Positions 7,580 through 24,846 of a stretch of DNA of 24,846 nucleotides are shown here, piece by piece. Positions within the stretch are counted from its first letter, which is position 1, and every line of letters starts with the position of its first letter. The notes beneath the pieces were generated by a model. It made no database searches. It was not told the DNA's origin and was given only the letters and a program-made list of their open reading frames with translations. The stretch comes from a virus. Its lineage: Duplodnaviria; Caudoviricetes. The DNA lies in IMG/VR virus record IMGVR_UViG_3300044858_004988, positions 1 to 24,846 of that record; one strand, written 5' to 3'. Made by a program: the position numbers and the translations under genes.

Positions 7580-8143
7580 TCAGTCAGCGGTGACAACCAG
7601 AGCCGCCGGGGTGTTGAAGCGCACGATGGCCAGGCCACCAGCAGCCGCCGGGCGCTCGATCTCCCAGCCACCGGCGGAGAAGTTGAGGCTGTTGCCGGTG
7701 CTGGCGGTTTTGCCCCAGCGGCCCGCGTTGTTGCCGCTCTTGAAATAGCGCAGGGCGTTGCCGGGGGCGAGGGTTTCCCAGCAGTCGAGGTAGATGGCGC
7801 CGACCTTGAGGATGTTGACCGCACCGCCGGGCTTGATGCCCTCCTGATACGGAGTCGCGGCATCGCGATGGGACACCTCGTGCACGTCGGTCAAGACGGT
7901 GATGCCCAGGATCGTGGAGGCTGCCACCGCAGGGGTGCAGGAGTTGGGCAGGACGCCGGAGCCGTTCCGGATCACGGGAATGCCGAACAGGATCCGGGCG
8001 GCCGTTTCGTTGTTGCCGCTGATGATGGTGCTGTTGCTGATGTCGGCAAGCTCACCGATGCGGCCGATGCCCATCTGCATGGGGTAGTCGCGGCCAACAC
8101 CGGCGAAGACGGTGGCGGCGTTATTGGTGAAGGTCTGGGCCAT
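7580..8143 (-). CDS. Head decoration/cement protein
   Basis: 187 aa, Gly/Ala/Thr-rich, ILFGIPV..G and AVNILKVGAIY motifs; between scaffold and capsid. Confidence 0.78.
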   Translation of the reverse strand: MAQTFTNNAATVFAGVGRDYPMQMGIGRIGELADISNSTIISGNNETAARILFGIPVIRNGSGVLPNSCTPAVAASTILGITVLTDVHEVSHRDAATPYQEGIKPGGAVNILKVGAIYLDCWETLAPGNALRYFKSGNNAGRWGKTASTGNSLNFSAGGWEIERPAAAGGLAIVRFNTPAALVVTAD

Positions 8144-8183
8144 GGTTCTAAGGAAAGGGGGTCAGGGAAGGGCGGGAACGGGA

Positions 8184-9575: not shown

Positions 9576-9803
9576 ATGGCGACACTCCTGCCTGACGCGA
9601 TGGTCCGTCGGCTGTTGGGTGCACGCTTGGGCGTGATCATGCGACAGCGTGGCGTCAGCCAGCAGCAGCTGGCGGAGCAGCTGGAGGTGCACCGCAGCGC
9701 CGTTAGCCGGTGGTGCTCAGGCGAGCGTGATCCGAACCCTGGCCAGCTGCGGTCGATCTGCCTGCTGCTCGCGATCGATCCGGCCCTGCTGCTGGGGCTC
9801 TAA
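9576..9803 (+). CDS. Xre/Cro-family HTH transcriptional regulator
   Basis: RGVSQQQLAEQLEVHRSAVSRWCSGERDP. Confidence 0.9.
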   Translation: MATLLPDAMVRRLLGARLGVIMRQRGVSQQQLAEQLEVHRSAVSRWCSGERDPNPGQLRSICLLLAIDPALLLGL

Positions 9804-9965
9804 TCAGCTGGCCTTTGGCCGCTTTCCCCGTGCCGCGGCCACCGGTGGGGCCTCCTGCAGGCGCAGCATTACGGTGGTCTCCACTGCCACGTTGGCCCAG
9901 TCGATCGGGGCAGCGTCGGGGCGGCGGGCTGAGGGATTGCTGCTAGCAGGGCTGAAAGGCGTCAT
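9804..9965 (-). CDS. Small hypothetical protein, 53 aa (not in the ORF track)
   Basis: Read by hand: MTPFSPASSNPSARRPDAAPIDWANVAVETTVMLRLQEAPPVAAARGKRPKAS; ATGA overlap with the upstream ORF; stop abuts the HTH stop. Confidence 0.5.
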   Translation of the reverse strand: MTPFSPASSNPSARRPDAAPIDWANVAVETTVMLRLQEAPPVAAARGKRPKAS

Positions 9966-10159
9966 CGGCGAGGCGTTGTGGACGATGGCAGTTTCTTTGT
10001 AGAGCCAGTGGGTTCAGCTGCCTGGCTCTCGGCATCCTTTTGATCGGCGGGGAATTGCCCCTCCGGGTCTGCAAACTCAAAACCAATGTCCTGCATTCGG
10101 CCTTGAAGCCCTTTGCCTTTGCCAGGTTTGCTTGATCCCGTCATCGCATTCATAGTCAT
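9962..10159 (-). CDS. Small hypothetical protein, 65 aa; candidate ART inhibitor
   Basis: ATGA overlap with the 1411-aa gene stop; shares the lower GC of the ART segment. Confidence 0.55.
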   Translation of the reverse strand: MTMNAMTGSSKPGKGKGLQGRMQDIGFEFADPEGQFPADQKDAESQAAEPTGSTKKLPSSTTPRR

Positions 10160-13100
10160 ATTCGTTCCACTGTAACCTGCAGTCCTTTTCCTTTGGGACC
10201 AGGGGTTACGGATAGCACCCTGAACTTTGCCGGTGGACCGACAATAACCTCTTGCTCATCCGCTCGCTCTGATAGCTTGGATACATCTCGGCCGCCGTGC
10301 CCCGCTTTGTAGGTGATAATAACCGCTGTGATTTTTGAAGATGTAACTCCCCCGGCTGCAAAGTGTTTTGCAACCGTTTCATCTCTGCTTGTGCTCTGAA
10401 AGGCCTTGTCCCGAAAGACCCCACCAACCTTGAACATCCTTTCCGCGTCTGCCGTCGGAATGGCAATCCCCCGGAAGGTATCCCCCCTGTATTCGGGGAG
10501 CTTTGTCAGCGCATCTTTCAGCATGGCCGCGCTGTCTCTGGATTCGTTAAAGTTCTGATCGTATTGCGTTTTAGCCTTACCAGTTCTCATGTAGTGGTTT
10601 ATGGCTGTATATTTATCATCCGCCGTGTAATTGCTGAGTGCGCCAAGGTGCGCATCGCTCAAGCCAAGCTTCTTGGCTTCTCTCGCTATTGCTTGCTCGT
10701 CAGTGCTGCGGATCTTGGCAATTCTGGCGCGGCTTTCCTGCCCTCTTTTCTGCATGTCCAGCAGGTTCTCGGGGTCTGTCTTCGGGGTTCTTCTTGCCGT
10801 TTGCCTTGGTGAAGGCGCCACTGCCGGAGACGGCGACTTGGCCGGCGTTGCATTTCCCGGCGCCGCCAGGGCGAGGATGCGCTGCATCTTCTGCTGGCCG
10901 GGGCCGGCTCCGGGGGTCTTGCGGCACTGCTTGCTCATCGAGATGCAGCTGGATCCGCAGCCATAGCCAGTGCTGCACTTCCGGCGCAGGGCATCGATCC
11001 GGGCTTCGAGGATGTCAGCATCCCGCCGGCTGCCGCCGAGGCGCCGCCGCGGCCGGCCACCACCCAGGGATGGATCTTCGCCACCTTCACCACCGAACTG
11101 CTCCTCTGCCTGGATGCGCAGGTCGATCGTCTGCTTCTGGAGATCGTTCAGCCGCTTGTCCTGGGCCTTCATGTCCTCGAGCGCGCTCTTCAGGGCTCCA
11201 GAGACGGTGCCGGAGGCGCCGGCACGGTTGCGCATGGCCGCGGATCGAGCGGCAGCTTCAGGGGAGCTGGCCTGGGCCTGCATCTTCTGGGCAAACTCGG
11301 CCTTGAACTTGTCCCGGGCCTGGTCCTTGCTCATGCCCCGGTAGCGGGTGCGGCGGTCGATTGTCCAGCCGGCCTCGAAGAGCTGCTCAGCGATCATCCC
11401 CATCTGCTTGGCGTCTGCGGCCTTCAGGGCCCCCAGGGTTTGCCTGAGGGCTTCTGTGACGCTGCCGGGTTTGGAGGCAGGGGCCGTCGTCGTGGGCCGG
11501 GCGGCTGCTCCACCGCCGGACTGGACGGCCAGGCTGCCGCCGGTGCTGGGGGTGCTGGCGGGCTGTTCCTTGAACAGCGGCATGGTTTCGTCGTATTCGG
11601 TCACCCCAAACAGCGATCTCTGGCTCTGCTTGTTGCTGCTGATGGCCGTGGCCAGCCGGCCGCGCTCCACCGCCCTCTCTTCCTTCCGCCAGGCCTGAGC
11701 CCCGGATTGATCCCCGGCGGCCTGGGCGGCCTGCTGCTGCTGCCGGGCGAAGGCGGCCTGTTGCTTGCTGGTGGTCACGTCCTGGGCGTTTAGGCCCTGC
11801 TCCTTGGCCTTGGGTGCCAGGCCGGGATCCTGGCGGCCGGGGTTGGTCAGCACCGGCTGGGGTGAGCCTTCTGATGCGTTCCCATTTGCAAACGTGCCCT
11901 CTCGAATCGGCCTGGAATGCTTGTTGCCACCGATGCGCACGTCTGTTGCGGTCCCCCCTCTTGTTGCTGTGCCGGCAGCTGCAAAGGACTCAACTGTCTC
12001 CAGCACTTCGCGGTCGCTGGTGTCTCGCAGAAGGTTTCGATTGCCCACATAGGAGGCCTTGTACTCGGCCTGCCACTCGTTGCCACGGCGATTATTGGTG
12101 CCCTCCTCGGCATCCGCGTCACTTTTAGCGTTGTGGTCTGCGTACCAGTGCTCTGCTGCCTGGCGATCCCGGAAAAAGTAGTTTTGCTTGGTGGCTCCTC
12201 CACGCTGGGTGCGGTAATACTTCAGGCCACCCGCTGCTTTTCTTTTCTCTACTGCTGGATCGTAGTTTGTATCGCCTCCTGCAGCGATGCTCATTGGCTT
12301 TAAGGTGACGATCTCCTTAAGTTGCGGAGTTGGCCGGTAGGGATTGGTTTGTTTCTCTTGAGCAGCCTTGGCTCGACGAGCAGCCTGGCGCTGGAATCGC
12401 AGCTCCTGAGCTTGGCCGGTGCGCCGACCCTGCAGATCAGCCGCCATGGTGGCCGCTTCGGCTGCTTTAGGCACACCTATCCCCTTGGGCTTGATTTCGC
12501 CTTGGGCCAGGGCCAGCAGCCGCTTCATGCGCTCCTTCCCGATGGCGCTGCGGGGAGTGGTGCGACATTCCTTCCGCAAGCTGATGCAAGCCGACCCGCA
12601 GCCATAGCCGGTGCTGCATTGCTTCCGCAGGGCATCGATCCGTTCCTGCAGGCTGTCGGCCCGGGGCCGCTTGCGCAGCCCCACCGCTTCCAGCTCAGCC
12701 TGCACCGCCTCGAAGACATCCCGCTCCAGCTCCTTCCGCACCGTGGCCTCGGCCTCGCCGGCCTCCACCCGATCGGCGGCACGGTTGAGGGCGGAACTGA
12801 TCGGGCCAGAGGCGCTCTTCAGCCGCTCAAACACCCCCAGGGCCTCGCTGGCCTCGCCGGCCACCTTGGCGCTCTGCTCCTGGTTGATCACGTTCCCCCC
12901 CTTCTCGGTCAGGCTGGTGGCGGCCTTGGCCTTGCTGACGGTGGAGAAGAGGCGCTTCTCCCGGGCGATCTTGGCCTTCAGGCCGGCGGAGAGCTTGGCC
13001 CGGGTGAACAGGTTGTCTTTGGCCTCCTGGCTCATTCCGAAGAGATCCATCGTGGTCTGGGTGCGTTGGGAGCTGGCAGCGGCATGCTCCACCAGCTCCT

Positions 13101-14391
13101 GCAGGGTCTGATCGGTGATGGCTTTGCGGGAGCCGATCATCTTGAACACCTCCCGCTGCTTGGCGTCATCGAGGCCACTGCCGCCAATGATCGCCCCGCG
13201 GTTCACCGTCAGGTCACCCCGCACCACAGCGTTGAACACGTCGCCGGGGAGCTTGCTGAGGCTCAGCCCCTTGGATGCCTGGCCGCTGCCCAGGGGCAGG
13301 CCCCGGGCCTCCACGTCCTGCTGGTTTTTGATGCCGGTGTCGCGGAAGAACTTGGCCGCATCCATCGGGCTGCCAGCCCCCTCGGCGATGTTCTGCAGGG
13401 CCCCGATTGCCCGGGCCTCGGTGGCGGTGGCGGCATTGAGGAAGCGCACGGTGACGGCCTCCGCCCCCAGGCGGTTGGCCAGGGCCAGGCGGTTGTGCCC
13501 GTTGACCACATAGACCTTGTCGTCGGCCGGGTCCTTCCAGACCGACATCACGCCGGAAAGGTTCGGGTCCCACTTGCGCACCCCCGACAGGCTGCCCACC
13601 TCGCCGGTGGTGGCGGTGGCGTTGATCTTGTACTGGAAGCGGGAGGGATCGAAGGCGAGCTCCCCTGGCTTCATCTCCCGGACGGTGCCGGGCTCCGTGG
13701 AGCTGTTGGCCGAGGCGGGGAGCTTGCCGGTGCGCAGGAACTCGGCGATCTCCGGCCGCTCGAGCAGCTTCTGCACCCGCTGGGTGGTGCGGTCCTTCTG
13801 CAGAGCCGCCGCGGCCGCCCCGCGGGAGGCCTGCGCCTGGCTGGCGGTTTTGCCAGCTGATTGGTTGCCGGCGGCAGCCAGCTGCTGGAGGCGCCGCAGG
13901 CGGCCCTTTCCGATCGCTGAACGGGGGGCGATCCGGCACTCCTTCTGGAGGGAGATGCAGGCGTTGCCGCAGCCGTAGCCGGTGGCGCATTTCCGCTTCT
14001 GGCCACCGCCGGCCCTGGTGCGGCGGAAGTCCATCCGGGCGACAGGGGCCCGCAGCTGCAGAAACGAATCCGATCGCAGCTCCCAACCACGCTGCAGCAC
14101 CCCCTCCCATGCGGGGCGATAGCCAACGCCTTCCGCATCGACACGGAACCGGTAGACCAGGCCATCGGCGGCCATCCGCCCGGCATGGGCAGCACCGTCC
14201 TGCCGCCAGTCGAGCACCAGGGCGCCGGGGAGCACCTCGGCCAGCAGCTGCTGCAGCACCGGGGAGACCCGATCGGCGGCGTCGTGCCGCAGGGCCACGG
14301 GGCGCTGGGCCAGGGCCTTGTTGACGCGGGCCACGGAAAACTGAGCCTCAATGGCCGAAAGGCGATCCAGCAGGGACTGGTGACGGCTCAT
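10156..14391 (-). CDS. 1411-aa multidomain (polyvalent) protein: N-terminal domain, three Cys4 cassettes, ParB/Srx-like domain, unknown domain, C-terminal ADP-ribosyltransferase
   Basis: VYVVNGHNRLALA (ParB-like); YTAINHYMR, TFRG, FQSTS and EQEVIV (R-S-E ART); three copies of C-x2-GYGCG-x2-CIS-x4-CR. Confidence 0.9.
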   Translation of the reverse strand: MSRHQSLLDRLSAIEAQFSVARVNKALAQRPVALRHDAADRVSPVLQQLLAEVLPGALVLDWRQDGAAHAGRMAADGLVYRFRVDAEGVGYRPAWEGVLQRGWELRSDSFLQLRAPVARMDFRRTRAGGGQKRKCATGYGCGNACISLQKECRIAPRSAIGKGRLRRLQQLAAAGNQSAGKTASQAQASRGAAAAALQKDRTTQRVQKLLERPEIAEFLRTGKLPASANSSTEPGTVREMKPGELAFDPSRFQYKINATATTGEVGSLSGVRKWDPNLSGVMSVWKDPADDKVYVVNGHNRLALANRLGAEAVTVRFLNAATATEARAIGALQNIAEGAGSPMDAAKFFRDTGIKNQQDVEARGLPLGSGQASKGLSLSKLPGDVFNAVVRGDLTVNRGAIIGGSGLDDAKQREVFKMIGSRKAITDQTLQELVEHAAASSQRTQTTMDLFGMSQEAKDNLFTRAKLSAGLKAKIAREKRLFSTVSKAKAATSLTEKGGNVINQEQSAKVAGEASEALGVFERLKSASGPISSALNRAADRVEAGEAEATVRKELERDVFEAVQAELEAVGLRKRPRADSLQERIDALRKQCSTGYGCGSACISLRKECRTTPRSAIGKERMKRLLALAQGEIKPKGIGVPKAAEAATMAADLQGRRTGQAQELRFQRQAARRAKAAQEKQTNPYRPTPQLKEIVTLKPMSIAAGGDTNYDPAVEKRKAAGGLKYYRTQRGGATKQNYFFRDRQAAEHWYADHNAKSDADAEEGTNNRRGNEWQAEYKASYVGNRNLLRDTSDREVLETVESFAAAGTATRGGTATDVRIGGNKHSRPIREGTFANGNASEGSPQPVLTNPGRQDPGLAPKAKEQGLNAQDVTTSKQQAAFARQQQQAAQAAGDQSGAQAWRKEERAVERGRLATAISSNKQSQRSLFGVTEYDETMPLFKEQPASTPSTGGSLAVQSGGGAAARPTTTAPASKPGSVTEALRQTLGALKAADAKQMGMIAEQLFEAGWTIDRRTRYRGMSKDQARDKFKAEFAQKMQAQASSPEAAARSAAMRNRAGASGTVSGALKSALEDMKAQDKRLNDLQKQTIDLRIQAEEQFGGEGGEDPSLGGGRPRRRLGGSRRDADILEARIDALRRKCSTGYGCGSSCISMSKQCRKTPGAGPGQQKMQRILALAAPGNATPAKSPSPAVAPSPRQTARRTPKTDPENLLDMQKRGQESRARIAKIRSTDEQAIAREAKKLGLSDAHLGALSNYTADDKYTAINHYMRTGKAKTQYDQNFNESRDSAAMLKDALTKLPEYRGDTFRGIAIPTADAERMFKVGGVFRDKAFQSTSRDETVAKHFAAGGVTSSKITAVIITYKAGHGGRDVSKLSERADEQEVIVGPPAKFRVLSVTPGPKGKGLQVTVERI
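10861..11028 (-). repeat. Cys4 cassette copy 3 (before the ART domain)
   Basis: RRDADILEARIDALRRKCSTGYGCGSSCISMSKQCRKTPGAGPGQQKMQRILALAA. Confidence 0.95.
12505..12663 (-). repeat. Cys4 cassette copy 2 (before the unknown domain)
   Basis: RADSLQERIDALRKQCSTGYGCGSACISLRKECRTTPRSAIGKERMKRLLALA. Confidence 0.95.
13870..14037 (-). repeat. Cys4 cassette copy 1 (before the ParB-like domain)
   Basis: RMDFRRTRAGGGQKRKCATGYGCGNACISLQKECRIAPRSAIGKGRLRRLQQLAAA. Confidence 0.95.
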
Positions 14392-14852
14392 CGATCAGGG
14401 ATCTCCTTCCATGGCCGGGGCGGCGTCAAGCGGCTGCGCAGGTGGTCAGCGGCGGCAGCCCTCGCTGAAGAGGCTGCAAAGCTGATCTGGGCCTTCATTT
14501 CTTTGGCTGGAATCATTCCGGCGGCTTCGGCGGCAACCTGCAGCCGCTCCGGGCCGATGGCCTCGATCTGCGGCTGCAACGCCAGGGCAGGCTTCCCCGC
14601 CGCCTCCAGCGCTTCGATCTGCTGCTGCAACTGGGGGGCCTGCCCCAGCGTCACCTTCATGTCTGCGATGCGCTTTGTGGCCGCTGCCTGCAGCCGCTCA
14701 TCAAGCCCCTCGAAGGCCGTGTCGATCCGGTCTTCCGCCTGATCCAGCGCGGCATCAATTGCACCATCCAGCTGGGCGCGGACCTTGAGCGCCAGCTTTA
14801 AGGCGAGGCGATCCAGCAGGGGATCCAGCAGTCCATCGAGCCAGTTCATCAC
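14388..14852 (-). CDS. Coiled-coil hypothetical protein, 154 aa
   Basis: Heptad-like Leu/Ala/Asp pattern; 4-bp start/stop overlaps with both neighbours. Confidence 0.75.
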   Translation of the reverse strand: MMNWLDGLLDPLLDRLALKLALKVRAQLDGAIDAALDQAEDRIDTAFEGLDERLQAAATKRIADMKVTLGQAPQLQQQIEALEAAGKPALALQPQIEAIGPERLQVAAEAAGMIPAKEMKAQISFAASSARAAAADHLRSRLTPPRPWKEIPDR

Positions 14853-15133
14853 GATGCTCCGAGACGGGTTTTGATGCGCTCAATCCGGGCCTGGAGATCG
14901 CTATCCTCCCGGCCGCCGCCACCTTGGCCCTTGGGCTTATAGGTGACCATGCCGCCCTTGGTGAACCTGAAGATGAAGCGCTGCCGGTTCGATACGAACT
15001 CACCTTGGGGCTCACCACCGGCATCGGAGATCGACACGATCTGCACCGGTCGGATCTGTTCACTCAGCAGCTCAGTGGCCAGCTGCACCATTTCAGTTCG
15101 TCGATCCACAGGGCCAGCAGCGTTCTGAATCAA
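14849..15133 (-). CDS. Small protein resembling the N-terminal domain of the 1411-aa protein (start TTG 15133 or ATG 15091)
   Basis: LLSE..G..FIFRF..G..YKP aligns with LLAE..G..YRFRV..G..YRP; ends REDSDLQARIERIKTRL. Confidence 0.72.
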   Translation of the reverse strand: MIQNAAGPVDRRTEMVQLATELLSEQIRPVQIVSISDAGGEPQGEFVSNRQRFIFRFTKGGMVTYKPKGQGGGGREDSDLQARIERIKTRLGAS

Positions 15134-15169
15134 GTATGGGCATGGTGATAGGGACGGTTGGCCGCCGGG

Positions 15170-16036
15170 CTACCCAGTTGGCGCGGCAGATTTGTAGGGG
15201 TGCCCTACGGGGAGGAGGCTCTGCAGATTCCATCCGGCGACCGGGCCGGCAAGATAACCCTGGACCAACTGAACGGTGGCGAGGCTAGTGCCAGGGGGCA
15301 GAATGACGATTTCCCATATAACGCCTACGAGTCGAGACGCGCCATTGCCCAGCGTCCCGAGATCCAACAGAAAGGACGCATTTGCCGAAGATGGGGCGTT
15401 TGTGAGTGAGTTGTTTTTAATTTCCGCCCCGCCGTTGACTGTAATTATTGACCTGTTCGCAGGTGTTGCGTTGCTGGGGTCACCAATATGCGTGATAATT
15501 ACAGGAGTGTTAGCCGGGTGCGCGTTGTCCCCTGATAGGTTGACAGCTGCATCTTGGCTGCCTACTCCTCTTGTTATTAACGCGCCAGCTCTTAGATTGC
15601 GGCCAACAGGGGCTCTGTCATCAAAAAACACAGAAAAGCCGTGGTTGGCTGACGCCCCGGCGTTGTTCCCCAGTAGTCCGTATAGAGCGTTGGGATCTGC
15701 GGTGTTTCCGGCTCTCCACACGGCTACGATAGTTGCGCCCGCGCCCGCTGCGGTATGCAGAAAATTCCACGTTGCTGCCGAACTGGAAGAAGTCAGCCAT
15801 TGGCTTCCGTTAAATGTTAGTCCGTTTTTGCCATTTAACGGATTCCCCATGGTTGGCTGAGCCCCGCCAGTCGCTTGGTCGAAAACGCGCTCAAGCCCCA
15901 GCTTCTTGTCCCGGATCTGGGATACCCCTGTCGCAATCGTAGTTGTGGCCGTGTCATACGGCGTAAGCCATAGCTCGGTGGCAGTTTGGGTTGGGGTCCA
16001 TAAAGTTGGCGCCCGCCGCCTAGAAGTGTAAATCAC
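15170..16036 (-). CDS. Virion structural / receptor-binding-like protein, probable LamG/concanavalin-like fold
   Basis: LWTP..LWL..D, QATGGAQPT, LTFNGSQWL, IWEIVI and GHPYKSAAP motifs; start reassigned to GTG 16036; lower GC. Confidence 0.65.
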   Translation of the reverse strand: MIYTSRRRAPTLWTPTQTATELWLTPYDTATTTIATGVSQIRDKKLGLERVFDQATGGAQPTMGNPLNGKNGLTFNGSQWLTSSSSAATWNFLHTAAGAGATIVAVWRAGNTADPNALYGLLGNNAGASANHGFSVFFDDRAPVGRNLRAGALITRGVGSQDAAVNLSGDNAHPANTPVIITHIGDPSNATPANRSIITVNGGAEIKNNSLTNAPSSANASFLLDLGTLGNGASRLVGVIWEIVILPPGTSLATVQLVQGYLAGPVAGWNLQSLLPVGHPYKSAAPTG

Positions 16037-16103
16037 TTTTGGCAACCTCCGATCTGGCGAGCCAGCGGCAGGGGAAATCCAGGGCGGCGGAAGGCGTTGT
16101 TCA

Positions 16104-16769
16104 TTACTCCTCAATTCCATTGACCCAGCCCGTAGCGCTTTCACTGTTGTCCTGCATTTTGCTAAAGGGCCAATCGTCAATGTTGCCGGTTTCCCCAGCC
16201 TCTTCAATCGCAGCGTAAATTACAGCTAGTCTTCTATCGTTATGAAACGATGCAGCCAGAAGTTTTTCGTGGCGTTCCACAAGGGCTATAAATTCAGGCA
16301 AATCGTTTTGCGCCGCTATCTGTTTTTCAGCATAAGCCAATTTTTCATTATATCCAAGCTCTTGCGGCCAAAGCGCACGGTTGTTAGATTCCCAGTACCC
16401 CCTAGCCAAAGTTTTCAGCTCAGCTTTACTGCGCCGCTTGAGCACACGGGTCTCCTCGTAGGTCCCCTGAGGGTGGCCGGTTGGTGGCTTGGGTACGGCT
16501 GGCTTTAGAAAGCGGCCACTGTTTTCGGAATCAACAAACCTAAGCTCGGAGTCAAAGGGCGCTCCCTCGAACGGCACATATTCGTAAAATTCTTCGCTGA
16601 AATCGTGAACGCCACCGTTGCCGGTGGGCCAGTGATCACCGCGTGGGTTGTTAATGTTGCCGTTGCTTACATTAACAAACAAGGCAACGCTTTTGCCATC
16701 CAATGGTCCTGAGGTGTAATACTCAATTCCAGTGGTGGGATTTGTTGCTGTGGGGGTCATGGGGGTCAT
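16104..16769 (-). CDS. Hypothetical protein, possibly fibre-associated, 221 aa
   Basis: Long ORF in lower-GC DNA directly after the fibre-like gene. Confidence 0.7.
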   Translation of the reverse strand: MTPMTPTATNPTTGIEYYTSGPLDGKSVALFVNVSNGNINNPRGDHWPTGNGGVHDFSEEFYEYVPFEGAPFDSELRFVDSENSGRFLKPAVPKPPTGHPQGTYEETRVLKRRSKAELKTLARGYWESNNRALWPQELGYNEKLAYAEKQIAAQNDLPEFIALVERHEKLLAASFHNDRRLAVIYAAIEEAGETGNIDDWPFSKMQDNSESATGWVNGIEE

Positions 16770-16774
16770 GGTGT

Positions 16775-18115
16775 TTAGGAGTAACGAACGTAAACAGTGA
16801 GCTTGAGGCCGGTGGCCCCTGTGCCGACCTGGATTAGGTCGCCCCCTACGGTATCCCCGGCCACAAGGGTCAGGTTGCCCGTGAGGGTGCCGCTCACATT
16901 TGTATAAATACCAGTGGTCACGGGCAGGGATGCGTTGGCGCTCAAAAGATTGGTCTTTGTCCCACTGCGGCGGGCAAACAGCATCACCTGGCTGCTGCCG
17001 CTGGTTGATACAGTTGTTGGGTTTAATTCAAAAGTCACACCTATTACTGTGCAAGCCCGATCTACGGCTTTCTCTTCGTAGTTATTACGAGGGACCGCAG
17101 TTTCCCCATTGTTTGAAATGGTGAGGACTATGCCCTCGGTCATTACAAGGTTGCCACTCTGAATCGAAAGCCCGCCGGCTGGGGTGATCTCCTCGACCGC
17201 CCCCACTCCTGCCGTGCCGCGGCCGGCAATGCGGTTGGTGGCCATGGTCAAACCGCTGGAGCCGATCAGGCCGCCCAAGGCCCTTTCTGCGATGTTCCCG
17301 ACGACCTTCTGCAGTGCCTGCAAAATCGAGTCCGACGCGCCAACGGTCCCGGCCCCTGAGGTGAATCCGGTCAGCGCCGCGCCGATCGCTCGGGCGGCCG
17401 TGAAGAACAGGTTGCCGCCGCTCTCGCCAAGGTCGCCTGTTCCCAGCGTGACAGCGCCGGTCTGCCCGTTGATCGAGCTGACCGGTGCAATGCCAGTGGG
17501 GAGCTGGATCCAGTCCGCCAGGGAGGCGCCGTTATTGGCGACGATCACCCATTCCGTGTAGGAGTCAGTTCGGATGCACCAGTCACCGCCTTCCCCGCGA
17601 AGGGCGAGCATTGCGGACTGGTTGGCCGCTTGGCCAAGGTATTGAACCACCGCAACCGCCGGGATCTGGCTGGTGGGCACCACGCCGCCCACCAAGTCGG
17701 CTTTTGCGGTGAGCGCTGCCGGTTGAACCGCCGTGTCGGCTTTGGTTCCCTGCGCTGCCGTGGCGTAATCGGTTGCGGCGGTTAAGGCCGCAGTGCCCAG
17801 CTCCAGGGTGGTGCGGGCGGTCGCTGCATTCAGCCCCGTACTGCTGCCGTCCCAGCGGAGCCGCTCGCTGAAGGCGGTGTCCCAGTTGGCCTGGCTGGTG
17901 TTGGAGGGCAGGCTGTATCCAGCGGCAAACGACAGGGTGATGTTGCCGCTCACCGTCACTGGCGAGCCGCTCACTGAGAATCCCGTCGGGACAACTAGGC
18001 CCACGCTGGTCACGGTCCCAGATCCGCCGTCGCCCGCACCGCCTTGCCCAGGCGGCGGGTTCACCGTGGCCTGGAGGGGGGTCTCGTTCAGTACAACAAC
18101 TGCCGTTATATCCAC
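16775..18115 (-). CDS. Fibre-like structural protein, 446 aa
   Basis: Gly/Thr/Ala-rich; fibre-type motifs GTVTSVGL, ATAAQGTKADTAVQP, KADLVGGVVPTSQIP and VSSINGQTGAVTL. Confidence 0.78.
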   Translation of the reverse strand: MDITAVVVLNETPLQATVNPPPGQGGAGDGGSGTVTSVGLVVPTGFSVSGSPVTVSGNITLSFAAGYSLPSNTSQANWDTAFSERLRWDGSSTGLNAATARTTLELGTAALTAATDYATAAQGTKADTAVQPAALTAKADLVGGVVPTSQIPAVAVVQYLGQAANQSAMLALRGEGGDWCIRTDSYTEWVIVANNGASLADWIQLPTGIAPVSSINGQTGAVTLGTGDLGESGGNLFFTAARAIGAALTGFTSGAGTVGASDSILQALQKVVGNIAERALGGLIGSSGLTMATNRIAGRGTAGVGAVEEITPAGGLSIQSGNLVMTEGIVLTISNNGETAVPRNNYEEKAVDRACTVIGVTFELNPTTVSTSGSSQVMLFARRSGTKTNLLSANASLPVTTGIYTNVSGTLTGNLTLVAGDTVGGDLIQVGTGATGLKLTVYVRYS

Positions 18116-18117
18116 TG

Positions 18118-18471
18118 TTACGACGCCCTCCCAAGCCTGGTGATTTCCTGTGTTCCTGCGAAAAGCGGGATGATCGTTCCGTTGGCTTGCGTGAGGATGA
18201 TCTCCCAGTAGTAGCTTCCTGCCGTCAGTGGCAGGATTTGCGGGTTAATTCGGAAAATGCCACCTGCGGCATTGGTGATCTGAATCCCAGCGCCAACGAC
18301 AAGATTCAACCTCTCCAGGTTCTCACCGACTCGCCGGTAGACCATGCGCGGCTGCGCATTGGTCAGGTCCAGCGGGATCCCGGCCGGCTGCTCCAGCGTT
18401 ACCGAGTTAATTCCTTCCCACGTCGTGCCTTCATAGACCGCGCTGAGCGTGAGGATTTGCGGCTGTGTCAT
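18118..18471 (-). CDS. Small beta-sandwich virion protein (BppU-N-like), 117 aa
   Basis: PLDLTN, IQITNAAGGIF, YYWEIILT and LFAGT pattern typical of phage fibre-anchoring proteins. Confidence 0.6.
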   Translation of the reverse strand: MTQPQILTLSAVYEGTTWEGINSVTLEQPAGIPLDLTNAQPRMVYRRVGENLERLNLVVGAGIQITNAAGGIFRINPQILPLTAGSYYWEIILTQANGTIIPLFAGTQEITRLGRAS

Positions 18472-18508
18472 AGCTGGCGGGCAGCTGGCGTCAGGCTAGG
18501 CCTCACAA

Positions 18509-18874
18509 TCAGCTGGCCTTGCCGGATTTCTTGGCGGTGGGCTCTGGTGTGAGTCCTTCAGCCAGCAGCGCTTCTCCACCACCGTCTGCTGGCTCGCTGC
18601 TGGCAACCTGGGCCAGCTCATCAAACTCCGCCAGCGACTCTTTAAGGGCCGTCTCTGCCGCGGCCACGTGGTCATTGCCTGGAGGCAGCTCCATCAGCGT
18701 TTCGAGAACCGTGTTCATAGCCCATGCCGCCTCGATCGGGCCAACCTGCTTCAGGAAGGCCAGGAAGTGCTGGGCGGCGTAGGCGCATTCGTTACGGTTC
18801 ATGGATGGCGACTCTGGATCGCCCTCATGGTAGGCATGGCCCTGGTTGGCAATGCCAAAACCGGGCCTTGCCAT
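18509..18874 (-). CDS. Hypothetical protein (start may be ATG 18802)
   Basis: Helical acidic product, co-oriented with downstream genes. Confidence 0.55.
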   Translation of the reverse strand: MARPGFGIANQGHAYHEGDPESPSMNRNECAYAAQHFLAFLKQVGPIEAAWAMNTVLETLMELPPGNDHVAAAETALKESLAEFDELAQVASSEPADGGGEALLAEGLTPEPTAKKSGKAS

Positions 18875-18886
18875 GGGGGCCGCAGC

Positions 18887-19135
18887 TCACGGGCGAAGCG
18901 GCGCGGCCAGGGGCTGTGCAGGCCCATTAAGCGCCGCAATGTCCCGCACGATCGAGAAAGCCACCAGCGCCACGACCAGGGCCACACCAGATAGGCAGAT
19001 GGCAATCAGGCCGGCATTGCAGCAAGGGGCAGGGGCTGATCGTTTGGGGCGGCGGGCCCGGAACTGGGGATGTAGAACCCGCGCAGGGGGCCGAGAGGCG
19101 GGCTTTGGCAGAACGGGGAGAAGGAGTGTGGGCAT
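18887..19135 (-). CDS. Small single-pass membrane protein
   Basis: Hydrophobic run LIAICLSGVALVVALVAFSIV preceded by a basic segment. Confidence 0.55.
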   Translation of the reverse strand: MPTLLLPVLPKPASRPPARVLHPQFRARRPKRSAPAPCCNAGLIAICLSGVALVVALVAFSIVRDIAALNGPAQPLAAPLRP

Positions 19136-19231
19136 GTTGAGATCGCTACGTTGTGAGTGCGTAACAACAATACATCAGTTCGGCTGTGGGGGTATGATCC
19201 GACCATCCCCGGCCTGAGCCGACCCGGATCA

Positions 19232-19534
19232 ATGACATCGTTTTCCCGCTTTGCGATCACCACCGCCCTGCTGACGCTCGGCGCCTGCCATGCGGCGCCA
19301 GCCCATGCCGGCGTGGGCACTGCGGCCTGGGCCACGGCCGGTTCGATCTGCCGGGCCCTGGGCGCCGACCTGACCATCCGCGCCGCCGTGCGAGTGGGGC
19401 TTTCGGACAATGCCTACCTCTGGTCCGCAGAGATGCGCGACCCGTCGTTTCAGCAGCTGATGGTGGCCGAAGCCGTCAGGCAATGCCCTGAGCAGCTGAT
19501 CCGCGCCGTCAATCAAGGCCGGACGCAGCCATGA
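19232..19534 (+). CDS. Small secreted protein with two mature-region cysteines
   Basis: Signal peptide MTSFSRFAITTALLTLGACHAAPAHA; ..SICRAL..VRQCPE; start reassigned to ATG 19232. Confidence 0.68.
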   Translation: MTSFSRFAITTALLTLGACHAAPAHAGVGTAAWATAGSICRALGADLTIRAAVRVGLSDNAYLWSAEMRDPSFQQLMVAEAVRQCPEQLIRAVNQGRTQP

Positions 19535-19561
19535 CCCTCCGCGAGGCCATCGCCAGTCGCC

Positions 19562-20866
19562 TTACCAGCTACGCGGCTGAGCGCGGACTTCCCCCGTTGG
19601 ACCCACCGCCAGGGTCTCCAGCACCGCCGAAAACAGCGCCCGTTGCTCCTCTGGTGTCGCACCCGCGAAAAACTCAGGGTCGCTGATCCGCTCGGCATAG
19701 CCAGCCAACTCAGGTGCCACCCTCGGCCGTCCTATCAGGCTGGCAATCTCCGTCCGCAACGCAACGCACGCCGATGCAATCGCCGGGTTGCGCCTAGCCA
19801 GCCCCTCCAGTTGCTCCAGATCCCGCCGCTTTGCCGCCACCGCCGGATCCTCGTCGGCGGGCATGGCATACGCTGCCGCCAGGCGATCTGCAGCAGCCAC
19901 GCACGCCGCCACCGCCAGAGGCATGGCATCAGGTTCCCGGATGGCGCCTTTCTCCTCGCACAACCGGTGACGGCAACGCCACCACGCCGTATTCCCCGAG
20001 TTGTTGCGGCGCAGGCTGTGGCCGCACGCCGCGCAGCTCAGCAACCCGGTCAACCCATGGCGAGCTTCACGGCCTCGACCCAGAAAGGTGTTGCTGGGCC
20101 GCCGCAGATACATCGCCAGCTCCTGCCAATCGGCCTCACCGATCAGCGGCGGGTGCTGGTCGTAGTGGATCTCGCCCCATTGCTGATTCCAGCTCTTCCC
20201 GCTGCCTTTCTGCAGTAGGTGGCCCACGTGCCCCCTGATGCAGGGGTTGTAGAACCAAGCCTGCAGGTTTGGGCTCGCCGGGGTCCACTCGCACCAGCTC
20301 GGCAATTCTCTCATCACCGCTGAGAAACTCCCCAACTGCCGCAACCTCTCCAACACCTTCAACGCTTGGGGCCAGTGCTCCGGGTGGGGCTCCAACTTGT
20401 GGTTGGCACCGCCTCGATACCCAAACGGTTTCCGGCGCCGTAGGTGGCGGCCCTGGGAGCGGTACTGCTCAAACTGCCGCCGCAGCCGCAGGCTCAGCAT
20501 CCGCGACTCCACCTCGGCCATGGTGGTGAGGATCCGGGCTTGCATGAATCCCTGGGGTGACGCCGCTTCGATGGTGCCGCCGTCGATCGCCGTGACCTTG
20601 ACCCCTTGGATCCCGCACAGGGCCAGCAGCTCATCGGCGAAGGCGGCGTTGCGGCCCAGCCGATCGGCTCTGGTGATCACCAGCTCGGCCACGCGGCCTG
20701 AGCGAACCTCAAGGATCACTTCCGCCAGGCCGGGGCGATCGTCATTCCGACCGCTCTCCAGCTCCTCCACGATCCGATCACAACCGGCCGCCCGAAGCCT
20801 GGCCACCTGAGCTGGCAGGGAGTCGGCCTGCTCCTCCTTCGAGACGCGGGCATAGCCGAGCTTCAT
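19562..20866 (-). CDS. Large serine recombinase (phage integrase)
   Basis: Catalytic YARVS, ESGR..RPGL and DRLGR motifs; KPFGY recombinase domain; zinc ribbon CAACG..WWRC..C; coiled coil. Confidence 0.95.
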   Translation of the reverse strand: MKLGYARVSKEEQADSLPAQVARLRAAGCDRIVEELESGRNDDRPGLAEVILEVRSGRVAELVITRADRLGRNAAFADELLALCGIQGVKVTAIDGGTIEAASPQGFMQARILTTMAEVESRMLSLRLRRQFEQYRSQGRHLRRRKPFGYRGGANHKLEPHPEHWPQALKVLERLRQLGSFSAVMRELPSWCEWTPASPNLQAWFYNPCIRGHVGHLLQKGSGKSWNQQWGEIHYDQHPPLIGEADWQELAMYLRRPSNTFLGRGREARHGLTGLLSCAACGHSLRRNNSGNTAWWRCRHRLCEEKGAIREPDAMPLAVAACVAAADRLAAAYAMPADEDPAVAAKRRDLEQLEGLARRNPAIASACVALRTEIASLIGRPRVAPELAGYAERISDPEFFAGATPEEQRALFSAVLETLAVGPTGEVRAQPRSW

Positions 20867-20898
20867 GGATAGGCTGCGGTGCAGTGGTTTCGGAGCCT

Positions 20899-20942
20899 AG
20901 CGCTTTGACGACGTTTTCCTTAGATACCGTCTCATAAGCGCT
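20899..20942. other. Candidate serine-integrase attachment site (attP-like)
   Basis: Ungapped imperfect inverted repeat around a central TT (20920-20921), 14 of 21 flanking pairs complementary, 33 bp upstream of the integrase start. Confidence 0.62.
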
Positions 20943-21142
20943 GCCTGTGGTACGGTTCAGGCGTCGGGGGAGACAACCCGATCGCCAGCCGGCCATAGGC
21001 GCAAAACCGGGCCGATCCGCCCCCAGCAGTTAGGGGGCAATCAAATCCAGCAGAAGAGCCCTGAGTGGCCCTGCTGGCACCGCATTACAACCCACCCTGA
21101 GCAGGCTCTGAGCAGCCGCCGGGACCCTCATAGGACCGAACC

Positions 21143-21631
21143 ATGACCACGATCTGCATCACCGCTCCCGATCTGAAGACCATCACCAGGGGCCTTTCCT
21201 CCGACTGGGGCCCGACGCTCCATGCCGCTGCCCGCCGCCTGGGGGCGGTGGTGGCCCTGATCTACACGCTGGGTTTCATGGCCGGCGAGCGCTGGCATCA
21301 GCTGGTGGCCTGGGCCCAGGAGCACCAGCTCCACGGCCTGGCCCGGCTGGGGTTGTCCGGGGGCAACTTGAAAGCCAGGCTTACAGGTTCAGCTCCAGAC
21401 CAATTTCCTGGCGCCACGGAAATGGTCACCACCCCCGTGGGGCCGAAACCCGTTGCTATCACTAACGGCGCCGAACTTTTGCCGGCCCCAGATGCCGCTC
21501 CGGTCACCACCTCCGCCAACGTCGCACCGCCCTCGGTCCGGCGTCTCGCCGCTCAGGGCTGCAGCCAGCGGGAGATCGCCGGCACACTGGGGCTCACCCG
21601 CTACCAGGTCCGCAAGGCCCTTGTTGCCTGA
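21143..21631 (+). CDS. Hypothetical protein with a C-terminal HTH
   Basis: SD-like AGGA before the ATG; VRRLAAQGCSQREIAGTLGLTRYQVRKAL; N-terminal hydrophobic helix. Confidence 0.72.
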   Translation: MTTICITAPDLKTITRGLSSDWGPTLHAAARRLGAVVALIYTLGFMAGERWHQLVAWAQEHQLHGLARLGLSGGNLKARLTGSAPDQFPGATEMVTTPVGPKPVAITNGAELLPAPDAAPVTTSANVAPPSVRRLAAQGCSQREIAGTLGLTRYQVRKALVA

Positions 21632-21687
21632 GCACCACCACGGCCCGCCGGAGCCCATCCGGCACCCCTTCCCATCGCACGCTTCCC

Positions 21688-22002
21688 ATGGTCACCTTCA
21701 TTTCCTTCACCAGCACCGGAGGCCGAATCGGTCGCATCCACTGGGCCAACACTGCCCCCTTCAAAGGCGGCACCATCTGGGGCCAGATGCAGTGGGACAA
21801 GTTCTGGCCTGCGAAGCCTGAGGAGCTGTTCTCTGCACGCATCCGGCGCTACGCCGAAGTTGTTCGGTCGGTCGGCAAGCAGATGAACCAGGTCCTGGCA
21901 ACGGTGAAGCAGGCGGAAAACGCCTTTGCTGAGTTCGGCCGAGCGTTCGGTGCCGCTGCCGAGATCAGGACTGTCACACCTCCAGCTCCGCCACCTCATT
22001 GA
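21688..22002 (+). CDS. Hypothetical protein, 104 aa
   Basis: ATG start and protein-like composition; its 3' end overlaps the MuF 3' end by 29 bp. Confidence 0.5.
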   Translation: MVTFISFTSTGGRIGRIHWANTAPFKGGTIWGQMQWDKFWPAKPEELFSARIRRYAEVVRSVGKQMNQVLATVKQAENAFAEFGRAFGAAAEIRTVTPPAPPPH

Positions 22003-23359
22003 CCATGGCCTCGTAGGCCTCGCGAGCGGCGGCATTGATCCAGCCCCTGGAGGGGGTCCAGACCGGATCCCCCGATGGCCAGGGCCTGGCCCCACCGTTG
22101 GCGGGGTTGTTCTCGGTGTTGGGCCTTGGAGTGGTGGCCGGCAGGGCGGTGCGTTCCATCAGGGGGTAGTCCCGCGGGCCCCGGGGTTCACCGGTGCCGC
22201 CGATTGGCCGCCAGGGCCTGGTGCTGGCCTCGTCGTACTTCCTGCGGGTCCCCGCGGCCAGTGCCTGCTGCTGATCCTCCCAGCGCTCGCCGCGGTTGGC
22301 CGCCAACTGGTTCTGGATCACCAGCGCCTCCAGGGTGATCGGGGAAAGGGCACACCTGCATCTGGGATGGATGGGGGTTTTGACGCTGCCGGCGTAATAG
22401 AGGGCCCCCATCCGGGGTGCGCAGAACTCGCAGACCCGATCGTCGGCGGTGGCCACGTACCGCACGAACCCAACGCCGATGCGGCGGAAGGTGCGCTCTC
22501 TGGCCTCGCCGGCGGCGATGTGGGTCTCGGTGCGGGCCACGGTCTCGGCCCGGTTGCGAAACGCATCGTTGATGTGGGGGAGGCGGGCCTTGAGGTTGCG
22601 GGCCAGGGCGCGGCTGTCGACGCCGGTGGCCATCTGAGTGGCGGTCTCGAACTGCACGGCATCGCCCCAGTCGCGCCACCAGCGGAAGAAATAGTCCTTC
22701 GCTGCCCAGACCCGATCGGAGGTTGCGGCGTTGCGCTGGCGGCGGTAGTCGGCGCTGAGGGTCTTGAAGTCCCGCTCAGACGCGGCGATGACGGCCCCCA
22801 GGTTCAGGAGCCTGGTGAAGCTCTGCCCCTCCTGGTAGGGGCTGCCCGGGGCCGGGGCGTCGGTGGGGGCCGGTGGTGCCGCCGGTGGCAGCTGGGGGTC
22901 CTGCAGCGAGGGGTGGCGGCTGCTGAGCACGGCCGCCGGGGGGAGCATGTCCCGCGACAGCTCGAGGGCGTACTCAGTCCCCAGATCTTGGGCCCGGTTG
23001 TAGAGCTCCGTGAGCTCACGGTTCAGGGCTGCATTGGCTGCCCGATCGGCCGGGAAGCGGTTGATGATCACCTGCAGGTCCTGGGCCAGCTGGCCTTGCA
23101 GGTAGAGGCTGGCCTGATCTTTCTGCAACGGGGTGATCGGCACCGGGCCATCCGGGGTGGAGCCCAGGAAGGCACCGGGGGTGGTGGCCGGGTCGTAGTC
23201 GGGCTGGGCCTCGATCCGCTCCAGGCGATCCATCAGGCTGCGGATGGTGCGGCGCAGGGCCTCATCGAAGATGCCCTTGAGCTTCCGCAGCTGCTGGTCC
23301 TCCAGGCCCCGCAGCTCCTGGTCGAGCTGCTCGATCAGATCCAGGGAGCGGTCAGCCAT
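21974..23359 (-). CDS. MuF / SPP1 gp7-family minor head protein
   Basis: RAETVARTET, YVATADDRVCEFC and PIHPRCRCAL motifs. Confidence 0.93.
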   Translation of the reverse strand: MADRSLDLIEQLDQELRGLEDQQLRKLKGIFDEALRRTIRSLMDRLERIEAQPDYDPATTPGAFLGSTPDGPVPITPLQKDQASLYLQGQLAQDLQVIINRFPADRAANAALNRELTELYNRAQDLGTEYALELSRDMLPPAAVLSSRHPSLQDPQLPPAAPPAPTDAPAPGSPYQEGQSFTRLLNLGAVIAASERDFKTLSADYRRQRNAATSDRVWAAKDYFFRWWRDWGDAVQFETATQMATGVDSRALARNLKARLPHINDAFRNRAETVARTETHIAAGEARERTFRRIGVGFVRYVATADDRVCEFCAPRMGALYYAGSVKTPIHPRCRCALSPITLEALVIQNQLAANRGERWEDQQQALAAGTRRKYDEASTRPWRPIGGTGEPRGPRDYPLMERTALPATTPRPNTENNPANGGARPWPSGDPVWTPSRGWINAAAREAYEAMVNEVAELEV

Positions 23360-23551
23360 TCAGGGGCCACAGCGCGCCCGCAGGGCGTCGATGCGACGCT
23401 GGAGGCTGTCATTGGTTGTGAGAGCAGGCCGGCCGGTGAGCTCGCGGAGGTGCTCGTCCTCCAGCCGGTAGAACGCCGCCACGTCGCCACGCCCCCGGGC
23501 CTCATTCATAGCCGCAAGCAACTGAAAGCGACGGGGGAATGGTTGTCTCAT
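23360..23551 (-). CDS. Small protein, 63 aa, ending in a truncated cassette (DSLQRRIDALRARC)
   Basis: ATGA overlap with the kinase stop; its stop abuts the MuF start. Confidence 0.7.
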   Translation of the reverse strand: MRQPFPRRFQLLAAMNEARGRGDVAAFYRLEDEHLRELTGRPALTTNDSLQRRIDALRARCGP

Positions 23552-24789
23552 GCTCGGCCCCCAAAACGGCGATCCAGCTCGCGCCGCATCTCATTGAGGT
23601 CACTCTGGCCAAAGATGGCGTCACGGGCCTCAGCGGCCCGGGCCAGCACCTCTGGCGTCAGGGGGGCCTCCAGTCCGACACGGGGATCCCGTAGAGCCAT
23701 GTCGTAGGGCATCCCCTCCTCTCGTTTGAGCCTGTTGGCCTCCACCATCCGCCGACGGAACTCACCCTTCTCCAGCTTGGCTCCCACTTTCTCTTCGTTG
23801 GCTTCCTTCCAGGCCAAGTCGTGGGCTGCGATGACGCGGCCGAATGCCATCTCTGCATCTCTTGCCTTTTCTCGGGCAATGGCCACAAGCTCAGAGACGC
23901 CTTTGGCTGCTTCCGGCAGGCGCTGCGCCTGTCCGGCCATGCTGAGAAGAGGAATGAGCGCATAGCCCTCGTCTGTTGCTTTCATTGCTGGGCTCCGGGT
24001 GCCCTGATTCCATGGATTGCGGCTTTCGCGCACCTGTCCCCAGTCGATCAGGCGTGGGGTGCCATCAGGGCCCACCAGTACGTTGCCGCCATGCAAGTCG
24101 CCATGGATTAGACCCGTGTCGGCCTGCCGGCGGGCCAGTTGCAGCGCCCCAGCCACGTATCTGGCAGCGGCCTTGGGATCGGCCAGATACGTGGCAGCTT
24201 CAGAGGTCAGCTCCACTGTGTTGTGAGACGGAGTGAGCTTTGAGCCCGGCAGCATTCGGTAGGCCAGGCTCCAGCGGCCATCGGGCAGATGGGTGAGCTT
24301 GCCGATGGGTTCGGGGCCCAGTCCGGTCGCATGGGCCCGCTGCAGGTTCTTGAACTCTCGCCGAGCCACGTTTTCCCGCTGCTCCGCCAGGCCCACCCCT
24401 GGGTTGCTCTCAGCAGGATCGCCCATCGTGAGACCGTTGACCTTCACCACCACCGGCCCGTCTTCTGTGTCGAACTGGTAGGTCTTGCCAAATGCCCCAC
24501 TGCCAAGACTGCGTGTTGGCTTGAGCCCATTGAGTCGAGGCTCTCCTCCGTCCGAATCAGTCGTGATCGTGATGCCACTGCGCGGCTGCTGGGACACCTT
24601 CTCGCCCGCGGCCAGGGCCAGCAGCCGCTTCATGCGCTGCTTGCCAGTCGAGCTGCCGGGACTGACCCGGCACTCCTTCTTGATGCTGATGCAGGTCGAT
24701 CCGCACCCATAGCCGGTGGTGCATTTCCGCCTGAGGGCATCAAGCCGGTGTTGCAGGGCTGCACAATCCACCGAGCCGTGGTGTCTCAT
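23548..24789 (-). CDS. Protein-kinase-fold phosphotransferase with an N-terminal Cys4 cassette (start ATG 24789 or 24843; frame open to the window edge)
   Basis: Gly loop LGSGAFGKTY, VVVK, REF (alphaC Glu), catalytic loop IHGDLHGGNVLV, LIDWG. Confidence 0.9.
   Translation of the reverse strand: MRHHGSVDCAALQHRLDALRRKCTTGYGCGSTCISIKKECRVSPGSSTGKQRMKRLLALAAGEKVSQQPRSGITITTDSDGGEPRLNGLKPTRSLGSGAFGKTYQFDTEDGPVVVKVNGLTMGDPAESNPGVGLAEQRENVARREFKNLQRAHATGLGPEPIGKLTHLPDGRWSLAYRMLPGSKLTPSHNTVELTSEAATYLADPKAAARYVAGALQLARRQADTGLIHGDLHGGNVLVGPDGTPRLIDWGQVRESRNPWNQGTRSPAMKATDEGYALIPLLSMAGQAQRLPEAAKGVSELVAIAREKARDAEMAFGRVIAAHDLAWKEANEEKVGAKLEKGEFRRRMVEANRLKREEGMPYDMALRDPRVGLEAPLTPEVLARAAEARDAIFGQSDLNEMRRELDRRFGGRA
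24604..24762 (-). repeat. Cys4 cassette copy 4 (before the kinase domain)
   Basis: AALQHRLDALRRKCTTGYGCGSTCISIKKECRVSPGSSTGKQRMKRLLALAAG. Confidence 0.95.
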
Positions 24790-24846
24790 CTCAACAGCAA
24801 CGAGCGCGCAGGCCATCGATCCGTTGCTGGAGCTTCCTCCCATGAG

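Follow-up and report, generated by a model that had tools for sequence, protein, structure and literature searches.

A putative protease site and a Cys4 knuckle in front of unrelated cargo domains in a tailed phage

We analysed a 24,846-nucleotide stretch of DNA that makes up the whole of a 24.8-kb tailed-phage record (Duplodnaviria; Caudoviricetes; IMG/VR record IMGVR_UViG_3300044858_004988, positions 1 to 24,846; hereafter the window), and in it a cassette of about 50 residues that occurs three times in a 1411-aa protein (10156..14391) and once at the N-terminus of a kinase-fold protein (23548..24843). Both proteins, and all features given below unless stated otherwise, are encoded on the minus strand. 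A first-pass annotation had treated the cassette as a single label; instead, it consists of two parts, an R-x-D motif with its helix and a Cys4 knuckle. The R-x-D/helix part is likely a prohead-protease site; it is also found without the knuckle, and it co-varies with the type of head protease. The reading that we lean towards, with modest confidence, is that R-x-D is cut by the head protease and the basic knuckle is closed by disulfides, so that precursors would enter the prohead, be cut there, and release knuckle-led cargo that travels with the DNA into the host.

The cassette and the proteins that carry it

The four copies were found exactly where the first-pass annotation had placed them, with first cysteines at residues 135, 592 and 1139 of the 1411-aa protein and at residue 41 of the kinase open reading frame (ORF). 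The window contains four matches to the cassette motif; in 100 shuffles the mean was 0.01 and the maximum 1. With copy 2 as reference, the pairwise identity to the other copies was 61–64%. An artefact of tandem duplication was rejected, since the copies are 59–80% identical in DNA, lie 9 kb apart and are conserved in 210 proteins. All 12 cysteines of the 1411-aa protein belong to its three knuckles. Copy 1 lacks the RIDAL helix, as had been noted, yet it keeps an R-x-D (RMDF, residue 119); copy 2 reads RIDALRKQC, unlike the R[IL]DALRR[KQ]-C first given for the helix, and the kinase copy has the second R-x-D only. The impression that the cassette belongs to no named family held up against Pfam, NCBIfam, the PDB (by profile and by fold) and the ESM Atlas, none of which returned a match, and the sole family match of the knuckle was phrog_33618, a family of unknown function.

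In the 1411-aa protein, knuckle 1 (residues 135–152; 13936..13989), which continues into a basic helix to about residue 173, is preceded by the site RMDF (residues 119–122; 14026..14037). Knuckle 2 (residues 592–609; 12565..12618) and knuckle 3 (residues 1139–1156; 10924..10977) are each preceded by a double R-x-D site with a helix (residues 577–587, 12631..12663, and residues 1122–1134, 10990..11028, respectively), and four further R-x-D sites followed by a small residue lie at residues 35–109. The protein contains seven R-x-D-[SA] against 1.4 expected; all nine of its R-x-D-[SAFG] lie either at residues 35–121 or no more than 20 residues before a knuckle, and the cargo itself contains four R-x-D with a different residue in fourth position. 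To judge from these motifs, the protein is likely a polyprotein that yields three basic cargo pieces: the predicted cut products (residues 122–579, 587–1124 and 1134–1411) are 458, 538 and 278 residues long, each with an isoelectric point of about 10 and an N-terminus 5–14 residues before Cys1.

The polyprotein joins an ADP-ribosyltransferase (ART) to two other conserved, unrelated cargo blocks, and ART is the only one of the three with a named activity. The R-S-E ART domain (residues 1222–1397; 10201..10728), first proposed by eye, was confirmed by a Pfam ART match above the cut-off (E 6e-10), with R, STS and EQE at residues 1307, 1333 and 1379. Cargo 1 (13072..13710) is conserved, with an invariant YVVNGHNR motif and a match to phrog_21 (E 3e-50). 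Its earlier description as ParB-like found no match in Pfam, in the PDB or by profile comparison; the NGHNR motif is one that we take to resemble ParB/Srx, and the label stays unconfirmed. Cargo 2 (11032..12474) combines, mosaic-like, three unnamed blocks found at different positions in relatives, and had no match in the ESM Atlas. A family scan found no zincin peptidase in the two cassette proteins of the window, and some relatives carry one. The GC content falls to 0.56 over the ART module (window positions 10001–11000) from about 0.66 around it, and many close relatives of the polyprotein lack the ART and have the helix with a single Cys at their end; on these two grounds the ART module was likely swapped in recently. 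The 65-aa ORF that follows the ART (9962–10159) had no family match.

The second cassette protein was rightly taken for a kinase: it matches APH/RIO1 and has the motifs GSGAFG, VKV, HGDLH and DWG. Its R-x-D (24736–24747) and knuckle (24670–24723) are N-terminal, its start codon is uncertain, and it has no leader domain of the kind described below. It had been placed about 10 kb from the polyprotein and next to MuF; the gap is 9.2 kb, and a 63-aa ORF (23360..23551) intervenes, which ends in an R-x-D helix with one Cys and resembles the C-terminal stubs of related polyproteins. The MuF minor head protein itself (21974..23359) has no R-x-D-[SA] and, as the first-pass annotation had it, no fused cargo, Phage_Mu_F being the sole domain found in its 461 residues.

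The R-x-D motif and the head protease

The DUF2213 head protease of the phage likely cuts at the R-x-D motif. The DUF2213 prohead protease-scaffold protein (8184..9500) has a gp21-like fold: an AlphaFold model of its residues 1–200 (predicted local distance difference test, pLDDT, 80; predicted template-modelling score, pTM, 0.75) matched T4 gp21 (5JBL) with a Foldseek E of 3e-5, and superposed with a Z of 12.6 and a root-mean-square deviation of 2.4 over 139 residues. His71 and Ser124 are invariant in the 15 rows compared and may be the catalytic residues. Substrates of prohead proteases are usually the capsid, the scaffold, the protease itself and internal proteins, and R-x-D is distributed along the same lines. 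R-x-D-[SA] occurs seven times in the window DUF2213 protein (0.6 expected) and 85 times in 15 DUF2213 proteins (8.4 expected), where it flanks the protease domain and fills the scaffold; it is absent from the MuF, cement and recombinase proteins of the window. The major capsid protein (6592..7524) carries R-L-D at residues 4–6, and an R-x-D lies within the first 14 residues in 14 of 15 capsid proteins of DUF2213 loci. Linked portals are enriched as well (34 against 8.9 expected), and no R-x-D was found in the cement or MuF rows compared across loci. The cement protein of the window (7580..8143), placed on the outer surface by its family and used as a control, has no R-x-D-[SA]. We also noted that PaV-LD ORF071 (L058:8155-9678), annotated 'capsid protein', is a DUF2213 protease-scaffold with nine R-x-D-[SA].

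The same motif marks the cargo. Over 49 deduplicated cargo proteins, R-x-D-[SAGF] occurred 100 times in the 35 residues before knuckles, against 3.0 expected, 45 times in leaders (7.8 expected), 21 times at C-termini (2.3 expected) and 29 times deep in the cargo (18.3 expected). Four control motifs gave 2–10 occurrences before knuckles against 3–4 expected, R-x-E reaching 10 against 4.0. Many relatives have a solitary R-x-D helix at the C-terminus, with one Cys after it.

Moreover, the cut motif swaps with the protease type. Overlapping loci formed 264 groups, of which the 37 with a head marker were used and the copies in the other 227 left out; ORFs under 150 residues were likewise left out, and the remaining copies were deduplicated at 80%. 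In DUF2213/portal_3 heads, R-x-D lay no more than 30 residues upstream of 62 of 64 knuckles, with a majority in 23 of 23 contig groups; in Mu-portal heads it lay upstream of none of 13 knuckles (0/5 groups). Conversely, [DENS]-F stood upstream of 10 of the 13 knuckles in Mu-portal heads and of 15 of the 64 in DUF2213/portal_3 heads. Six Mu-type proteases, a label that rests on a Portal_Mu neighbour and the GenBank name 'peptidase' and comes with no Pfam match, held 23 x-F-[SA] against 8.0 expected and one R-x-D-[SA] against 1.7, and one of these proteins has neither.

Upstream of the cut site lies an unnamed leader domain of about 50 residues, which occurs with both head types and also alone. 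In the polyprotein it spans residues 46–93 (14113..14256; detected by profile, with its range taken from a near-identical homologue), and is a candidate prohead-targeting part. A 94-aa ORF (14849..15133) consists of a stand-alone leader domain with R-x-D and helix, without a knuckle. Among 74 deduplicated leader instances, an R-x-D followed within 60 residues in 68 and a knuckle within 110 residues in 57, and 17 had no knuckle. The leader's position ahead of the cut means that cutting would take it off, in the manner of a targeting propeptide.

A published N-terminus bears on the position of the cut. The mature capsid protein of phage TLS has been N-terminally sequenced, according to the accessible text of PMC11447400, and the published N-terminus maps to residue 28 of the precursor (L494:7088-8062), directly after K-N-D. 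This K-N-D aligns in register with the R-L-D of the window capsid, and the TLS protease matches the DUF2213 profile (E 9e-28). In the available text of the Rogue1 paper, N-terminal capsid peptides are missing and no cut site is given. We consider it quite probable that cutting in the window phage falls after the Asp.

Relatives of the knuckle, virion data and genomic setting

A profile built from the four window copies, with 8,000 candidates scored, recovered 210 proteins (120 of them listed) in 129 clusters at 50% identity and from 57 viral loci. The expected linkage to head modules was evident: in 51 of the 57 loci the cassette gene lay no more than 3 kb from, and on the same strand as, a portal, MuF, DUF2213 or capsid gene, and of the other six, two were 4.9–5.2 kb from a marker and four had none on that strand. 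That the cassette is a portable unit with a different cargo behind each copy was also upheld. The 806 downstream segments fell into 77 single-linkage clusters, the largest of which (308 segments) is chained through a shared helix extension, and the four window segments into four of them. Named cargo comprised ART, kinase, zeta toxin, LPD1, DnaJ, zincin peptidase, GNAT and alpha/beta hydrolase; these names come from scans of 79 and 45 selected proteins, most of which had no match. In one locus (L116), seven knuckle matches lie within 20 kb and four of five proteins scanned are kinases (examples at 4805-5836, 7399-8424, 8448-9617 and 11096-12133). Elsewhere the knuckle is fused directly to a Mu-type protease-scaffold (L373:2237-4486), a Mu portal (P0223) or a MuF-domain protein (L237:1407-3041). 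Among isolated phages, only chance-level rows appeared beyond three cyanophages.

The knuckle has the spacing C-x5-C-x3-C-x6-C, and its model, of moderate score (best pLDDT 82.7, the other four models 61–67; pTM 0.42), shows two helices with a short hairpin in between. A 57-aa knuckle model had no fold match in the PDB (best Z 2.9), and a viral fold search with the knuckle model gave seven rows, three of them with protein lengths as in the cyanophage CL131. The four cysteines are invariant in the four-Cys form. Loss of cysteines was counted with an anchor that required neither Cys1 nor Cys3: both were present in 308 copies, neither in 69 (about three of them chance rows), and one alone in a single copy. 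In variants that lack Cys1 and keep Cys2 and Cys4, Cys3 was replaced by Trp, Phe or Tyr in 45, and His stood at Cys3 in 22; the proteins had first been collected through four-Cys copies, and the two-Cys variants represent few lineages. The two-Cys knuckle (L358, L363, L366, L385 and others) often follows a 'PGQ-L-x-L' linker and an R-x-D site.

The same core is common outside phages. Of 115 matches in bacterial genomes, 109 were not cargo-like and mostly had signal-peptide-like starts, as judged by eye, and 30 longer matches that were scanned contained SH3 (eight), nuclease-type (four), other (two) or no (16) recognisable domains. The Cys-rich module (L208-L327), with four to eight cysteines, is widespread in small exported-looking proteins of many bacterial phyla. 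It shares with the phage knuckle a basic character and the C-x5-C-x3-C-x6-C core; it differs in following a signal-peptide-like start or SH3, nuclease or PKD domains, in often having extra cysteines, and in lacking both R-x-D and downstream cargo. Because Cys1 and Cys3 are lost jointly and the core is common in exported bacterial proteins, we favour, from these alignments, disulfides 1–3 and 2–4 over a zinc site, and the earlier suggestion of a metal-binding cassette is disfavoured. The opposing proposal, a structural zinc site in proteins that stay uncut with R-x-D serving as a binding motif, draws on the four invariant cysteines in cytoplasm-made proteins and on the His at Cys3 in 22 two-Cys variants, and is highly improbable given the 45 variants with an aromatic residue at Cys3 and no Cys1, which do not keep the ligands together as a Cys4 zinc finger or ribbon would, the exported-looking bacterial matches, and the TLS N-terminus directly after Asp.

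That proteins of this kind occur in virions, as the first-pass annotation supposed, is true of relatives. CL131 encodes four knuckle proteins, gp044, gp045 (weak, E 0.006), gp047 and gp048 (bases 1-111,500 of 112,793 scanned), and all four are among the 23 virion proteins in the published liquid chromatography–tandem mass spectrometry table (PMC6293099), gp048 being the top-scoring entry of that table. The spectral counts in that table were 123 for gp045 and 175 for gp048. S-CBWM1 has five knuckle proteins (gp106, gp113, gp161, gp162 and gp174), and a second-hand account (PMC10665884) reports that virions contain its APH, ChoK and Rio2 kinases; by their GenBank names these are gp162, gp161 and gp113. 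The GenBank start of gp113 (L197:20375-21325) lies downstream of the knuckle, and the frame is open further upstream. In PaV-LD, seven ORFs carry a knuckle (bases 1-79,329 scanned), two of which are called virion proteins, by GenBank name only. We think it very probable that the cassette proteins of the window are packaged in the virion.

In the window, the minus-strand order is kinase, 63-aa ORF, MuF, serine recombinase and tail-type genes, 94-aa ORF, a 154-aa ORF, 1411-aa protein, DUF2213, cement and major capsid, so that the polyprotein gene sits in late/virion surroundings, between MuF and the DUF2213-cement-capsid block. The serine recombinase and low-GC tail-type genes (15170-20866) separate MuF from the head genes, and close relatives share this arrangement. 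A gene for a small helix-turn-helix regulator (9576-9803), oriented oppositely, lies between those for polyprotein and protease, and a KilA-N gene (1696-2835) lies in the tail region. The host is likely a freshwater picocyanobacterium, to judge by sequence similarity, because Synechococcus phage S-CBS4 is the best isolate match for the window protease and capsid and because a contig of a Cyanobium metagenome-assembled genome encodes a closely similar polyprotein.

A delivery model, its alternatives and related systems

In the reading that we prefer, tagged precursors would be built into the prohead through a removable part, either the leader domain or a scaffold-like helix. The DUF2213 protease would then cut after the Asp of R-x-D and release separate cargo proteins, each starting with a knuckle that stays on every cut product. 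The arm between the cut and Cys1 is strongly basic (207 Lys and Arg against seven Asp and Glu in 468 residues), and DNA binding after cutting is the most likely job of the knuckle, at somewhat less than an even chance on sequence grounds. There is also slightly under an even chance that the retained knuckle, arm and helix grip DNA, thereby keeping the pieces inside the head and carrying them out of it. Early in infection, the ART and kinase might then target host proteins of defence or transcription.

Several observations weigh against this reading. Cutting, packaging and injection are predicted for the window phage from sequence alone. The contig groups are related, so the motif counts are not independent; one DUF2213 protein (L080) has no R-x-D-[SA], and one Mu-type protease (L202) is without its own motif. 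Depletion of R-x-D inside cargo was dropped as evidence, as the control motifs fall too. TLS provides a single site in one distant phage, with Lys at the first motif position, and its authors surmised the removal of 45 residues and saw a 29-kDa product, as far as the accessible text goes (PMC11447400). In CL131, the four knuckle genes belong to the gp038-049 cluster, for which 11 of 12 proteins were detected, so location confounds the virion result, and the table gives no peptide positions. The S-CBWM1 account also lists an NMNAT without a knuckle in virions and warns that virion enzymes may be contaminants (PMC10665884). Finally, SH3 outnumbers nucleases among the fusion partners of the bacterial knuckle (eight against four of 30), and the DNA-binding step is less secure for it.

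The strongest alternative, which follows the first-pass annotation and which we nevertheless consider unlikely, is that the knuckle itself is the packaging label and docks cargo on the prohead core or on DNA, R-x-D serving only to free the pieces later. The knuckle is the sole part common to DUF2213, Mu-type and S-CBWM1-like heads; in S-CBWM1 it lies at residues 5–13 of gp106, gp113, gp161 and gp162 with no leader, cut site or anything else upstream, an arrangement that also counts against the preferred reading. The knuckle-less PknB-like gp173 is not named among the virion kinases APH, ChoK and Rio2 in the available account (PMC10665884), and the knuckle fusions to a Mu-type protease and a portal fit a label as well. 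However, the S-CBWM1 virion evidence is second-hand, and an R-x-D helix or leader without a knuckle is common, as in the 94-aa and 63-aa ORFs and the 17 of 74 leader instances. Furthermore, a polyprotein needs one N-terminal label, yet the knuckle repeats after the cut sites, which fits a post-cut job. A broader idea, to which we give only a tentative and less than likely place, is a code shared by at least three cyanophage head types, with an optional leader, a protease-matched cut site and a universal redox-sensitive knuckle that stays on each released effector and by itself suffices for retention and delivery; under such a code, placing a domain after the cassette would be enough to have it injected as an effector.

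It is improbable that the proteins are instead internal core or morphogenesis components, retained or degraded, whose knuckle would cross-link or compact them through disulfides after lysis and whose enzymes would target virion proteins or work late in infection, rather than following injection. The disulfide-like co-loss of Cys1 and Cys3, a cargo cut motif that is the same as the scaffold's, and the very high spectral counts of CL131 gp045 and gp048 are all compatible with such a role. Against it stand the high variability of the cargo, from ART and kinase to alpha/beta hydrolase, the presence of several of these cargo types among the polyvalent-protein domains named in PMC5512222, and the absence of the ART module from many close relatives.

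The preferred reading has precedents. The window proteins fit phage-type polyvalent proteins, large late-gene proteins that join unrelated effectors (ART and kinase, with LPD1 and zincin in relatives) and that are predicted to be packaged and injected (PMC5512222). According to the same text, 36% have a zincin peptidase, and processing by the proteins' own zincin domains is proposed; unlike in that scheme, the module boundaries here coincide with repeats of a putative head-protease site and of the knuckle. 'Cysteine' and 'DUF2213' are absent from the main text of PMC5512222, and the paper's FTP domain tables could hold a knuckle domain. PMC7156551 and PMC3496638 added little, in the parts available. 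The T4 internal proteins and Alt, and the SPN3US and phiKZ ejection proteins, offer a second parallel to the proposed scheme: their precursors are processed by a prohead protease of the gp21 fold, which has capsid and scaffold among its other substrates. The T4 prohead protease cuts after Glu and removes a short targeting peptide. Unlike in T4, the R-x-D cut would fall after Asp, one polyprotein carries several cargos and a folded tag would stay on the products; the cassette system appears to work like T4 internal proteins and Alt, the latter a packaged and injected ART (PMC5512222), and fails the T4 sequence rule. As with MuF polymorphic toxins and MuF-fused effectors, the head module holds variable enzymes as cargo alongside MuF, but the system is not a MuF toxin: MuF here is without cargo or R-x-D-[SA], and the cargo genes are separate. 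The same knuckle is present in phrog_33618 and in the proteins of CL131, PaV-LD (7 ORFs) and S-CBWM1, which the annotations available call hypothetical, virion or kinase without naming a shared unit. Literature searches, with most subscription papers outside their scope, returned no description of the cassette or of the R-x-D rule.

A shared tag on the kinases, ARTs and other enzymes of cyanophage particles would allow virion cargo to be predicted from sequence. R-x-D also provides a likely cut rule for DUF2213 proteases, a group with relatives in 1,683 GenBank phage records. The findings further point to head-protease cleavage of some polyvalent proteins, which would then be polyproteins, and the tag singles out numerous cargo domains without a name as candidates for early anti-defence or host-takeover effectors.

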